The translations under genes were made by a program, and so were the position numbers. 64,000 bases of DNA from a virus. Below are positions 8,522-19,305 of this stretch, piece after piece. The notes beneath the pieces were generated by a model. That model was not told the DNA's origin. It did not search any database and was given only the letters and a program-made list of their open reading frames with translations. The stretch covers positions 2,167 to 66,166 of IMG/VR virus record IMGVR_UViG_2816332652_000003. One strand, given 5' to 3'. How positions within the stretch are numbered: the first letter of the stretch is position 1; each line of letters starts with the position of its first letter.

Positions 8522-9643
8522 ATGATCATCACAGGAAACTGCATCGAAGTGATGCCGCAGCTCGAAGCCGAGTCATTCCACACATGCGTAACATCTCCAC
8601 CGTATTGGGGCCTGCGTGATTACGGCTTGGAACCATCACACTGGTCCGAGATGACATATACGCCTATGCCGGGCCTTCCGTCACTCACAGTGCCTGAGTG
8701 GAGCGGTTGCTTGGGGCTGGAGCCTACGCCGGAAATGTTCGTTGCTCATACGGTGATGGTGTTTCGGGAGGTATGGCGGCTGCTGAGAGCTGACGGAACG
8801 TTATGGATGAATTTTGGTGACAGTTACGCAGGCAGCGGTAAAGGGGCATGGAGTAACACGGATGATCAGAAAGAGGTCTATGTACCTGCACCAGATAGTC
8901 CGCAAACAAAGATACCGAAATCTCCAAGCGGCTTAAAAGCAAAAGATATGGTTGGTATTCCTTGGCGCGTAGCTTTCGCCCTGCAGGCGGAAGGTTGGTA
9001 TCTCAGATTGGACAACATTTGGCATAAGCCTAATCCAATGCCAGAGAGCGTACGCGACCGTCCAACTAAAGCGCATGAATATATGTTTTTGTTAAGCAAA
9101 TCCGAACGATATTACTATGATGCCGAATCTATCCTTGAACCTGTATCTCCCAACACGCATGCGCGTTTATCCCAAGACGTGATGAACCAGATTGGAAGCG
9201 ACCGAGCAAACGGCGGAGCTAAGACCAACGGGAATATGAAGGCAGTCGGTAGAAAACCAAAGGCTTCAAAAGCGGGATCCGGAATCAAATACAACGAGAG
9301 CTATGAATCTGCCTTAGCGCTTCCTGTAACCCAACGTAACAAGCGCAGCGTCTGGACTGTGACAACACAGGGGTTTTCAGAAGCCCACTTTGCTACATTT
9401 CCTGAAGCACTAATCAAACCCTGCATACTGGCAGGCGCTCCGGTGGGCGGTCGTGTACTTGATCCATTCGGCGGATCGGGAACAACGCTGAAAGTCGCCA
9501 TGGAGAACAACCGGGAATGCACCATCATTGAAATGGGACCACATAACGTTGAGATAGCAGAACGGCGTACAGCGGTTGTACAGCCTACATTGATTTTTTT
9601 GAGGAAGGGGCAGAGCCTCTTCCCACCACATACCACAATATAA
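8522..9643 (+). CDS. Orphan beta-class amino-DNA methyltransferase (N4-C/N6-A)
   Basis: Catalytic TSPPY precedes the SAM-binding DPFGGSGTT; no cognate restriction nuclease adjacent. Confidence 0.92.
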   Translation: MIITGNCIEVMPQLEAESFHTCVTSPPYWGLRDYGLEPSHWSEMTYTPMPGLPSLTVPEWSGCLGLEPTPEMFVAHTVMVFREVWRLLRADGTLWMNFGDSYAGSGKGAWSNTDDQKEVYVPAPDSPQTKIPKSPSGLKAKDMVGIPWRVAFALQAEGWYLRLDNIWHKPNPMPESVRDRPTKAHEYMFLLSKSERYYYDAESILEPVSPNTHARLSQDVMNQIGSDRANGGAKTNGNMKAVGRKPKASKAGSGIKYNESYESALALPVTQRNKRSVWTVTTQGFSEAHFATFPEALIKPCILAGAPVGGRVLDPFGGSGTTLKVAMENNRECTIIEMGPHNVEIAERRTAVVQPTLIFLRKGQSLFPPHTTI

Positions 9644-9662
9644 ATTTGAGGGAGCGATTGAA

Positions 9663-10394
9663 TTGAGTAATCAAGAAAATGTTGTTCTTAACCCAGATCA
9701 AAAGGCTGTAGCACTTAAAACACTGAAAGATATGTTTTTCGCGGCACAACAGCTTCATAAATGGATCGAGACCGATAAACTGTCTCAGGAAATGTCTGGT
9801 ACACTGCCAACCCTGATAGAAAGTCATTTCACGGATATCGCCAAACAACTTAACTACGAAAGCAAACTGACAAAAGACCAGGAAGATCGTTACCGGGAAA
9901 TCAGAACAGCCAATGAACGCGTGCACGAACTTGAAAAACAACTAGGCGAGAACAAGCCGATGGACGGATTAAAAGAACAACTTCGGTATCTGGCAAGCAC
10001 AGTTTCGGATTGGTGGAACAAACATGGTTTTTATCATGTGTCAGATGGAAATTTCACTGAATACGGACATTATACCGCTCGTTTCTGTTTCATGCTTGAT
10101 CACCTTTCAATGTATAGTGCCACGCCAGTAACGGATAAGAGAAATTGGAAAGAGCGTATCCGACAACTGATTGACGAAGGTTGGGATATTGTTTTCGAGG
10201 ATGGACAACGTAGCCCAGAACTACTGGACAATGACAAAAACCGCGCAAAATTGGTGGACTTGATTAAGACTCGCTTCCCATCAGCGAAAATCTTTAAGAC
10301 ACGAAATTGGCTACGGAACAATGAAACGGGATATGTGTTTCGGGATTTAGAGGTTTACATCTACGACCTGAAAGACATTCCGGAGAATAAATAA
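9663..10394 (+). CDS. Hypothetical phage protein
   Basis: 243-aa ORF with RBS; no recognisable motif. Confidence 0.7.
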   Translation: MSNQENVVLNPDQKAVALKTLKDMFFAAQQLHKWIETDKLSQEMSGTLPTLIESHFTDIAKQLNYESKLTKDQEDRYREIRTANERVHELEKQLGENKPMDGLKEQLRYLASTVSDWWNKHGFYHVSDGNFTEYGHYTARFCFMLDHLSMYSATPVTDKRNWKERIRQLIDEGWDIVFEDGQRSPELLDNDKNRAKLVDLIKTRFPSAKIFKTRNWLRNNETGYVFRDLEVYIYDLKDIPENK

Positions 10395-10434
10395 AATTCG
10401 GGGGTATAGGCCCACCAAAGGAGAGATAACACAC

Positions 10435-10641
10435 ATGGCAAGGATGTGCCAGAAGTTGACTGAGGTAGTTAAGCTTTCCGTTAGATCACAAATGGAGATC
10501 AGGTCGGAAGAAAAAGCCAACAGGCTAATTGAAATGCTGGAGCTCATTGCAAAAGGGACTAAGTATGAACGTGATGTTTTCGAGGCTCTGGATAACTATC
10601 ACGAAACCACTGGTAGAGAAAACGGAAATGTAGTGGATTGA
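10435..10641 (+). CDS. Hypothetical protein
   Basis: RBS AAAGGAG upstream. Confidence 0.55.
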   Translation: MARMCQKLTEVVKLSVRSQMEIRSEEKANRLIEMLELIAKGTKYERDVFEALDNYHETTGRENGNVVD

Positions 10642-10666
10642 GGCTACGGCCTCTAACCAAGGAGGG

Positions 10667-12063
10667 ATATACAGAAGGCAGGCATACCGATCAAAACGCT
10701 TCTGGCTCATTTTTGCAGGCATCGCGCTGCAAGCTGACTGTTAGTAAGATAATATAAATGAATATAGTACACTTTAACTAAAGGTGGTGATTAAATGATT
10801 CTAGCTAAAAAAGTTAGAATTCGACCAACTCCTGAGCAGGAGAAGCAGTTGTGGCGTTCGGCAGGGACGGCTCGCTGGGTCTACAACTTGACGCTTGCCC
10901 GGCAAATAGAGAATTACCAGAATGGCGGGAAGTTCTTGCACGATGGAGTACTGAGAAAAGAGTTGACGCAACTTAAGAAGCGAGAAGAATATGCTTGGCT
11001 GTACGATGTTTCCAACAATGTAGCAAAACAAGCCGTAAAAGATGCCTGCGATGCCTACAAGAAGATGTTCAAAGGACAATCCAAGAAACCGAAGTTCAAG
11101 ATCAAGAAGCGCTCCAAACCAGCGTTCTACAACGATACAGTCAAGTTCAAGGTCAAAGACAGTAAGGTCTTACTCGAAAAAATAGGCTGGGTGGCAACTT
11201 CTGAACAACTTCCAGAATCGGACAAGTACAGCAATCCGCGAGTATCATTTGACGGTAAGTATTGGTACGTATCCGTAGGTATTGAGCAGAAGCAAGAAAG
11301 CTCTGAACTGTCGGACGAGGCGATTGGTATTGATGTAGGTATTAAAGAACTGGCGGTCTGTAGTAACGGAATGGTCTTTAAGAACATCAACAAGACAGCC
11401 GCCGTAAGAAAGACGGAGAAACGATTGCGGAGGTTGCAACGCAAAGTGTCCCGCAAATATGAAATGAATAAGGAAGGAAGCCGTTTCGTCAAGACATGTA
11501 ACATTGTAAAAGTCGAAAATTCCATTCGTTTGCTTCATCGGAGAATAACTAATATTCGCGGCAATCACATCCATCAAGCAACAAACGCAATAGCGAAAAC
11601 CAAGCCTAGCGCTGTTGTGATGGAAGACTTGAATGTTAAAGGGATCATGAAGAACCGATACTTAAGTAAAGCAATTGCAGGGCAAAAACTGCATGAGTTT
11701 ACCCGACAAATGAAATACAAGTGTGAGAAGATAGGCGCAAGGTTTATCCAAGCCGACAGGTGGTTCTCTTCATCGAAATTGTGTTCGTGTTGTGGGCGGA
11801 TCAAGAAAGACTTGAAATTATCTGATCGTACCTATGAATGCGATTGCGGATTCATTATTGACCGAGATATGAACGCGGCAATCAATTTATCTAAATTGGC
11901 GAATTAACACTTACACGTTATCGCTGATATGTAGGATTCGTTGTATCCGAATTTACGCCCTTGGAGTGTTATATCAAACAAAAGTAGTCTCTGGACAAAA
12001 TTGGGCACGAGGAAAAGGGAAGCAAACAAGGATTGTGTAGATTTATACAACTCTTGGCAACGG
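10667..12063 (+). mobile_element. Non-autonomous IS607-type element (tnpB only, no tnpA); left end inferred
   Basis: The right end terminates in ...CTTGGCAACGG (12063), as IS607-family ends typically do. The left end is placed after AAGGAGGG (10659-10666). No transposase ORF is present. Confidence 0.6.
10795..11907 (+). CDS. tnpB: TnpB RNA-guided endonuclease, catalytic residues intact
   Basis: N-terminal HTH; RuvC-I IGIDVG, RuvC-II VMEDL, Zn finger CSCC..CDC, RuvC-III DRDMNAAIN. Confidence 0.95.
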   Translation: MILAKKVRIRPTPEQEKQLWRSAGTARWVYNLTLARQIENYQNGGKFLHDGVLRKELTQLKKREEYAWLYDVSNNVAKQAVKDACDAYKKMFKGQSKKPKFKIKKRSKPAFYNDTVKFKVKDSKVLLEKIGWVATSEQLPESDKYSNPRVSFDGKYWYVSVGIEQKQESSELSDEAIGIDVGIKELAVCSNGMVFKNINKTAAVRKTEKRLRRLQRKVSRKYEMNKEGSRFVKTCNIVKVENSIRLLHRRITNIRGNHIHQATNAIAKTKPSAVVMEDLNVKGIMKNRYLSKAIAGQKLHEFTRQMKYKCEKIGARFIQADRWFSSSKLCSCCGRIKKDLKLSDRTYECDCGFIIDRDMNAAINLSKLAN

Positions 12064-12083
12064 ATATATAGATGACACAAAAA
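11880..12083 (+). ncRNA. Putative TnpB omegaRNA scaffold plus guide (guide begins at 12064: ATATATAGATGACACAAAAA)
   Basis: ~155-nt non-coding tract after tnpB with hairpins (TAGGATTCGTTGTATCCGAATTTA) ending in GCAACGG. TnpB omegaRNAs derive from the element's right end plus flanking DNA. Confidence 0.7.
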
Positions 12084-12178
12084 AATAATAAATCAAAAAA
12101 ACCAATAAATGACATAAATAAATAAAAAAACAAAAAGAGATAAGGAAATGTTCCTAATCACCTTGAGGAGGTAAAGCA

Positions 12179-17435: not shown

Positions 17436-19154
17436 TTATCCTTTAATGAAATCTTGCAGTTCGCTCTTAAAGAATTCCAATTTTTCTGGAGTGTTGTTTA
17501 ACACTAATTCAGTCAGTTCCATTCCATGAACTATTTTATTGTAGTGTAAAGAGTAACTTTCAAATAAGCGTTCTAACACTTCACTTCCAACGACATCTTT
17601 TAATACATTTGTAGAACCTTTTTTAGGGAATAATTTATTGTCATCGATTGATAATAATAAATGGTCGATTTTGCTCTTTATTAGATCTGGATCTGCAGCA
17701 GCTATTGATAAATTTCGATTAATGATTTCAGAAAGCTCATGATAACAGTCTAAAAAGTAGTTCTCGTACTCTCGTCGTCCCAAGATAATTATACTATCTC
17801 CATAGCTTTCTCTTAATGTGAGAAGTTTTTCGTCGGTTTTGTTATCTGCATCAATAATTATTTTATAAGGTATTGGACTCTCTGATATGCCACTTAGAAT
17901 TAAGTCAAGTTTGCCTTTATACGCTCGCATAGAAGAATTCTTATTAAAATAATTACCAGTTCCCTTCATATTTAATATTCTGTAATTATAACCAATCTGT
18001 TTTAAGCCGAAATGAGTGAGGATCATCGGAATTACAAGTTCCTCAGTTTGTCCTTCTACAAATATTACTTTATCAGATAAAGCAAAGTCACTATTACTAA
18101 CACCTATATCAGACAACACTTCTTGAATATGTTCTAACTGTGTGAAGGAACTTATCCCATTCAACTTACTTACATGAATTAAATATTTATCAGATGGATA
18201 ATTAATTAAAATAGGGGAATGCGTAGTGAATACAAACTGGTGTTCATTGCTATCGCTTACTAAATCATAGATGGCCTTCTCGGCAGAAGGATGTAAGAAT
18301 ACTTGTGGCTCATCAAATAGAACTATACTGTTTTCTTTTGTATAGAGTACACACAATAGTAATAAAACGTGAGTATAGCCACTTCCGCAATCTGATAAGG
18401 GAATTGGCGTATCTAAGCCTTCGAAGGATACACTTATAAAAGTCTGGTTACCTCCATCAATAGGAGTCCTAATAGTTATAACGTCAGTAAATATTTGTTT
18501 AAACGTTTCCACAATTTTATCAAAAGTTTCTTCTTCATTATTGTGCATAGAGTAAAGAAACCCATTAAGATTTGTCCCATCAATTTTTAAGTAATTGTTT
18601 AAAGTTGAAGTCTCAGTCGAAGGTACATGTCTAGAACCAGTTATATAAACAATTTTCTTGTTTAAAAGGTTCATGAAATTAGAAATAAATGTACTATTGG
18701 GGACTAATACGCTGTCTTCTTGATCGGGTATCACGAACATATATTTTGGAGCTACTCCAACTTTATGATAATTACTGTTAATGTAAACATCTTGAAAATG
18801 ATCGTTGTAGTATCCTTGTACTTTATTAAAAACTGTCACATTATGACTATTGAAATATCTTAAAAAAAGTCTGAACTTTTCTGAATACTGGATTGTAAAT
18901 CCTGGAGGTACATTATCATTTAGATAATTTACTTCTTCGTCTGACAAGGATAATTCTAATTCAATTTCGGTTGATTGAGTATCTAAGGCCGGGGAGTTTA
19001 GCATACCTTGTAGAACTTTATACAACGCTTCAATGAAAGCTGATTTACCTGTATTATTTTTACCTGCTAAAACATTCATTTTATTATGTAATTTAATCTC
19101 TCCTGAATCATCGATACTTTTGTGATTTTTAATACGAACGTTAAGAATTATCAT
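17436..19154 (-). CDS. OLD-family ABC-ATPase + TOPRIM nuclease (candidate anti-phage gene)
   Basis: Walker A GKNNTGKS, signature LSDCGSG, Walker B LFDEP, H-loop TTHSP, TOPRIM VEGQTEE and IIDAD; start set at ATG 19154 with its RBS. Confidence 0.88.
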   Translation of the reverse strand: MIILNVRIKNHKSIDDSGEIKLHNKMNVLAGKNNTGKSAFIEALYKVLQGMLNSPALDTQSTEIELELSLSDEEVNYLNDNVPPGFTIQYSEKFRLFLRYFNSHNVTVFNKVQGYYNDHFQDVYINSNYHKVGVAPKYMFVIPDQEDSVLVPNSTFISNFMNLLNKKIVYITGSRHVPSTETSTLNNYLKIDGTNLNGFLYSMHNNEEETFDKIVETFKQIFTDVITIRTPIDGGNQTFISVSFEGLDTPIPLSDCGSGYTHVLLLLCVLYTKENSIVLFDEPQVFLHPSAEKAIYDLVSDSNEHQFVFTTHSPILINYPSDKYLIHVSKLNGISSFTQLEHIQEVLSDIGVSNSDFALSDKVIFVEGQTEELVIPMILTHFGLKQIGYNYRILNMKGTGNYFNKNSSMRAYKGKLDLILSGISESPIPYKIIIDADNKTDEKLLTLRESYGDSIIILGRREYENYFLDCYHELSEIINRNLSIAAADPDLIKSKIDHLLLSIDDNKLFPKKGSTNVLKDVVGSEVLERLFESYSLHYNKIVHGMELTELVLNNTPEKLEFFKSELQDFIKG

Positions 19155-19305
19155 TATCTCTACCTCTATTCTTTTTCTATTAAACACAACAATACCATTA
19201 TAGTCCATCTTAGTATGTAATTAAGAGAGTGAATTATTGACCCAAATGAGAACCCTACATGACCTCGTTTAGAGATCATGTTGAACCCCACAAGACTATT
19301 TTCCC

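Follow-up and report, generated by a model that had tools for sequence, protein, structure and literature searches.

Introduction

Transposons of the IS607 family follow the rule that exchange takes place at a GG dinucleotide and leaves no target duplication (PMC6188088). In TnpB of ISFba1 (PDB 8IAZ), an IS607 element, three RuvC residues were shown to be catalytic, and TAMs of AGGAG or GAGGG were measured for enzymes of this type (Ren et al. 2024, PMC11061315). The same study reported RAGATH-18 with IS607-type TnpB only. In CboIStron, retention and homing are driven by an IS607 TnpB, and a right-end flank that is not a TAM is a known way in which IS607 elements escape self-cutting (Zedaveinyte et al., PMC10690162). 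A TnpB gene drive between plasmids was obtained in the laboratory (Mears et al. 2025, PMC11870625). Among phages, homing endonucleases spread or kill competitors (T4 SegB/SegF, reviewed in PMC13565253; PhiPA3 gp210, PMC11620839). Our literature search found no test of TnpB homing between phages.

Here, we compare with these systems a tnpB gene carried by a provirus. The window, i.e., the whole stretch of DNA analysed, comprises 64,000 nt of IMG/VR record IMGVR_UViG_2816332652_000003 (67.5 kb), which is classed as a complete provirus. Positions given alone refer to the window.

Results

The provirus and its TnpB

The provirus is of the Paenibacillus type, and the nearest relatives of the 207-aa gene flanking the tnpB cassette are found in Paenibacillus prophages. 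Replication genes, a DNA methylase, a tyrosine recombinase and terminase genes form the neighbourhood of the cassette (Table 1). The methylase slot 5' of it (8522-10394) is filled differently in each carrier, with an N6/N4 methylase in the window, Dcm and Dam in L035, and PAPS-reductase and YoqU in L096. A 590-aa ATPase is encoded directly after the terminase genes on the minus strand (17436-19208); its PADLOC matches are OLD/GajA/AriA-like, and it is likely to be defence cargo. In relatives, this slot holds other cargo (Schlafen, AIPR, TIR, PIN). Short repeated intergenic modules (hairpin-RBS units) mark gene-swap boundaries in the variable middle region of these phages, in the window at 10400-10434, 10640-10676 and 12130-12175 and likewise in relatives; several relatives have a 20-bp palindrome 5' of the 207-aa gene.

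Table 1. Features of the tnpB cassette and its flanks.
Feature	Position	Strand	Remarks
Hairpin, RBS and spacer module of the phage, outside the element	10640-10676	+	Hairpin 10640-10653, RBS 10659-10666; also stands before about 15 different genes of TnpB-free Paenibacillus prophages
Gene stub	10677-10729	+	Some 17 codons left of a phage gene for 61-62 aa, with AAG where the start codon has decayed; gene intact in L006 and L055/L065
Remnant IS607 left end	10730-10794	+	Inner motif at 10737; runs into the tnpB RBS; no GG core or upstream target motif; start ±1-2 nt
tnpB, 370 aa	10795-11907	+	RuvC D180/E277/D358 and zinc finger intact; Pfam PF12323, PF01385, PF07282; NF040570 above cut-off
omegaRNA/reRNA scaffold and right end	11908-12063	+	Ends in GG core; homologues diverge directly afterwards
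Predicted guide	12064-12081	+	RBS spacer and first codons of the deleted target gene; 18/18 match in element-free loci; identical in three filled alleles
A-rich filler, 55 nt	12082-12136	+	41 A, 8 T, 5 C, 1 G; occupies the place of the target gene and of some 2 kb of genes behind it
207-aa phage gene	12179-12802	+	Kept in all relatives examined; phrog_21810, a family whose function is not known; right-hand anchor of the variable region
Sister TnpB cassettes	L038:5660-7290; L098:7660-9290		Follow a Dam-like methylase gene; insertion site in a conserved hairpin module

The protein has all parts of a TnpB, namely the HTH, the RuvC D-E-D motif and the zinc finger. Its best PDB match is 8IAZ (E 1e-78), and D180, E277 and D358 align with D194, E290 and D371 of ISFba1 TnpB; all three catalytic residues are kept in 5/5 copies compared. 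The active site is thus intact, as the earlier note had stated. Among the NCBIfam models, the general one alone passes, since the IS607_TnpB model reaches 179 bits (cut-off 350) and IS200_TnpB 246 bits (cut-off 425). The assignment to the IS607 type, also made in that note, was supported by the closest solved relative, by RAGATH-18 downstream of tnpB (11958-12021; RF03064, 66.7 bits vs a gathering score of 44.9) and by the GG right end. Like ISFba1, the locus thus combines RAGATH-18 directly downstream with the same triad and a purine-rich, RBS-like target motif. Unlike ISFba1, it has no tnpA and has lost the left core, two of its TAM-contact residues are changed (K80 to N75 and N122 to D115), and it lies in a prophage with the target gene deleted.

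That tnpB stands alone was likewise confirmed: neither the provirus nor the host that carries the nearest copy (G000 and G004 searched) yielded an IS607 serine-recombinase tnpA (NF033518). Two relatives with 80% identity, L039 and L041, have apparent tnpA remnants. In L022-L025 and L029, a small divergent gene that by eye resembles a ribbon-helix-helix protein occupies the tnpA position 5' of tnpB. An IStron was ruled out, as only about 65 nt precede tnpB and no Rfam group I intron matched in the left end.

The right end and the insertion habit of the family

Similarity to homologues breaks off behind the GG at 12063, which fixes the right end at this position, in agreement with the earlier note. 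The omegaRNA may have its 5' end inside tnpB. When the scaffold was folded alone, its stability was no better than that of shuffles (z -0.8), and the fold was not used as evidence.

At 46 of 57 distinct insertion sites of homologues (L019-L175), a start codon follows shortly after the right end, at a distance of 2-14 nt (6-9 nt in 38 of them). Counting ATG alone, the proportion is 35/57, compared to 7.6% at random positions. Insertion between an RBS and its start codon is therefore routine for this TnpB family, because its target motif is RBS-like; this motif is consistent with the TAMs AGGAG and GAGGG. The earlier note had seen this placement correctly in the window, but named the wrong RBS.

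The empty site in element-free relatives

The true empty site consists of GGAGG followed by an 18-nt match to 12064-12081 and was found in the same phage region at 12 distinct element-free related phage loci, 18/18 nt matching at each. The match of the proposed guide to element-free phages was thereby verified, as was the reading of these 18 nt as a real RBS spacer with start codon. In the relatives, small genes begin at this site; for one of them, a Phage_ABA_S protein was confirmed as the product. A reversed control pattern gave 0 matches in 401 genomes. Markers other than the target were used to choose 15 TnpB-free prophage regions; six of these carry the target (five perfectly, one with a mismatch at position 15), and in 2 further regions it stands behind a changed motif. 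Changed-motif variants are represented by L002 and L067. The exact target is absent from the carrier provirus and from host G004. The empty target has GG at the exchange point, the right end terminates in GG, and no target duplication is seen.

DNA upstream of the empty sites varies from locus to locus and never resembles the present left flank of the window. The proposal that the empty allele is restored by fusing the present flanks therefore failed: true empty alleles carry GGAGG behind unrelated DNA and join at another left position, the outcome that the earlier note itself had named as refuting it. A search of viral contigs for the empty-site sequence proposed earlier gave one match (L033), which runs into a different gene.

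A broken left end

Hairpin and RBS are present in the left flank as described before. The left end proposed at 10667-10677, however, falls into this phage module and the truncated gene behind it; the hairpin-RBS-spacer arrangement heads many different genes in TnpB-free relatives. In L006 and L055, the counterpart of positions 10673-10721 is the beginning of a phage gene that is intact and encodes 62 aa. The ATG of this gene is intact in L035, whose cassette is 98% identical, reads AAG in the window and is deleted in L096. A matrix was trained on 23 left ends of the family (lowest training score 15.4, median 32.3), and position 10737 gave the top inner-motif score of the whole 64 kb. At 16.7 this score is weak and close to the lowest of the training set; it falls to 2.7 at the window's left end when the full matrix including the GG part is used. 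The purine-rich motif with GG, normally 5-8 nt upstream of the inner motif, is missing. Of the sister copies, L096 scores 12.4, and L035 has a 1-nt deletion and no longer scores. In place of the left GG core, the window and L035 have TG and L096 has TA. Judging by the module shared among unrelated genes, the stub match, the ATG of L035 and the matrix peak at 10737, the element spans about 10730 to 12063 and its left core is broken.

The site taken for the left end had been said to resemble the guide except at position 6, a mismatch that could protect the carrier. It actually has two mismatches to the guide in the first 11 nt, at positions 6 and 10, and 6/18 overall. The argument is also not needed, since the cassette's own target copy is preceded by AACGG and not by GGAGG. 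We rejected self-avoidance via this look-alike; besides its 6/18 mismatches, the start codon lost in 2/3 carriers is equally explained by pseudogene decay.

Deletions on both sides of the cassette

In relatives with the 207-aa gene, the empty site lies 2.0-2.5 kb before this gene, compared to 0.15 kb in the window. The stub gene is found about 1 kb (L006) and 2 kb (L065) upstream of the empty site. Given these distances and the differing upstream DNA of the empty sites, the comparison shows an insertion into an RBS, followed by two deletions that removed both flanks and the target gene and kept the guide. Of the marks of an intact mobile IS607 element, the window lacks the GG core at the left junction, and tnpA was not found.

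The A-rich tract follows immediately on the last nucleotide matching the empty allele. It is the sole such tract in the window, 0/57 other family insertions have one, and it measures 55, 54 and 32 nt in the three copies. That it is an untemplated tail written into DNA at the 3' end of the guide is very unlikely. A retro-copy origin was not supported, as the provirus has no reverse transcriptase and the left-end remnant was kept. The ATG after the right end opens a frame of only 17 codons (5 and 14 codons in the sister copies); the target gene is thus gone. The 17-codon frame itself was rejected as a real gene, as it is not conserved among these copies.

Conservation and spread of the cassette

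Three diverged prophages (the window, L035 and L096) share the same broken junctions. Among them, 30-39 of 1113 nt differ in tnpB and 2-3 of 156 nt in the scaffold, and the guide is identical; its invariance, taken alone, is borderline (P about 0.05). For tnpB, dS was 0.11-0.12 and dN/dS 0.07-0.12, and the pooled changes in the three copies are 38 synonymous vs 14 non-synonymous (p about 6e-15). By this codon comparison, tnpB was shown to be under purifying selection after its stranding. Stub and A-rich filler collect indels and decay while tnpB, scaffold and guide stay conserved.

Between carriers, identity in the next gene, coding for the 207-aa protein, is no more than 78-88%, and in the tree the copy of the window falls among TnpB-free phages (99/99), so the cassette was moved by recombination; the tree of this gene alone is compatible with a single origin of the carriers. 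Other genes of these phages are 98-99.9% identical between otherwise different phages, a discordance equal to that of the cassette. Lateral spread does not prove drive, because the phages are mosaic everywhere. Carriers are rare (1/93 genomes), and a genus-wide search found one further carrier only.

A sister lineage at the same locus

A TnpB with 91% amino acid identity lies before the same 207-aa gene in L038 and L098, with a guide different from that of the window. In these cassettes the left end seems complete, the right core reads GA, and a divergent HTH_26 gene or the remnant of one is present. The sister guide matches perfectly in a hairpin module at 12 related loci, including the carrier L035, but not in the window's provirus.

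Discussion

Taken together, the comparisons show how the cassette arose. In a Paenibacillus temperate phage, a tnpA-less IS607-family element inserted within the variable middle region, at the GG of a GGAGG RBS before a small gene (often one for a Phage_ABA_S protein), and spacer and start codon thereby became its guide. On the left, a deletion that fused the left end to the stub took the RBS and the GG core, probably along with 1-2 kb of genes; on the right, another removed the target gene and about 2 kb more, sparing 18 nt of guide. With mismatched cores and no tnpA, the cassette presumably no longer transposes. Recombination has since carried it into at least three diverged phage backgrounds, with tnpB, scaffold and guide conserved. 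Selection would then come from TnpB cutting relatives that still have GGAGG and the target: in a co-infected or superinfected cell, the rival would be removed, or the break would be repaired from the carrier, copying the cassette. The carrier itself would be spared, because its own target copy follows AACGG. We infer that the cassette is expressed, that its TAM is close to GGAGG (judged from the flanks), that it is immobile and that selection comes from the cutting of relatives.

Comparison across relatives makes homing or competition plausible, and we lean slightly towards a transposition-dead TnpB that is kept by homing into, or competitive cutting of, related phages during shared infection. 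A role like that of a homing endonuclease is favoured by the presence of the target in element-free relatives and the absence of the exact target from the carrier; against homing in particular, repair would have to bridge 1-2.5 kb of non-homology on each side. A wider claim is possible but doubtful, namely that Paenibacillus phages have domesticated IS607 TnpB as an RNA-guided weapon or drive against relatives. It would accommodate two such events at one locus, broken cores, guides directed at a conserved intergenic or gene-start module, and one lineage targeting a carrier of the other.

It is unlikely, though worth weighing, that the cassette is a stranded passenger carried by ordinary phage mosaicism without effect on relatives, its low dN/dS reflecting gene conversion with mobile copies or selection against a toxic mutant protein. 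The insertion site is typical of the family, mosaicism is rampant in these phages, carriers are few, and immobile TnpBs are common (PMC10691335). However, no chromosomal donor above about 83% identity was found, the scaffold has changed at so few positions and the guide at none, the right deletion spared exactly the length of the guide, and the same pattern recurs in a second lineage. Superinfection exclusion at the prophage level is also unlikely. TnpB expressed in the lysogen would destroy incoming relatives to the benefit of phage and host, and the cassette would not be copied. The target as a constrained RBS/start module common to many relatives would suit such a function, loss of flanking homology hampers homing but not cutting, and changed-motif variants exist; yet these may be ordinary RBS variants, tnpB is co-oriented inside the replication/middle region, and no sigma-70-like promoter was found when the left-end remnant was scanned.

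Phage-borne immobilised TnpB derivatives are known to act as TldR-like RNA-guided repressors (10.1101/2023.11.30.569447). That binding rather than cutting blocks the target gene of relatives here is, however, extremely unlikely, because the RuvC domain is not inactivated and all five copies have the three catalytic residues. Practically negligible is the probability of the anatomy proposed by the earlier note, an intact element from 10667 to 12063 with a left end mimicking the guide, whose excision would rebuild the empty allele. The textual resemblance to the guide is real, because both are phage RBS spacers, but that end is phage module and gene stub, the family left-end motif lies at 10737 and empty alleles join elsewhere.

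On the preferred reading, i.e., retention through cutting of related phages, the cassette invites comparison with other nucleases. With CboIStron (PMC10690162) it shares the GG core, a guide derived from the right flank and self-protection by a non-TAM right end; unlike CboIStron, it has no group I intron and is not excisable as a clean unit, so any homing would take place between phages and not be restorative. The likeness to the plasmid drive (PMC11870625) would lie in the cutting of element-free copies of a multicopy replicon, which here would be a phage. Free-standing and intron-borne homing endonucleases of phages (PMC13565253; PMC11620839) are likewise immobile nuclease genes between conserved anchors, aimed at alleles of relatives. 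In contrast to T4 SegB/SegF and PhiPA3 gp210, which belong to other protein families, the nuclease described here is an RNA-guided RuvC enzyme of transposon origin.

The TnpB protein, its RNA and its insertion habit are already known. What differs is the stranded state, with a broken core, a deleted target gene, a retained guide and continued selection, and its occurrence in two lineages at one phage locus. The locus offers a compact natural test set in a culturable genus, comprising carriers, target-bearing relatives, changed-motif relatives and two guides. If the nuclease is not kept for cutting relatives, the cassette would be an ordinary stranded IS607 remnant; if it is, the cassette would represent a stage between the accessory gene of a transposon and a free-standing gene for RNA-guided homing or exclusion.
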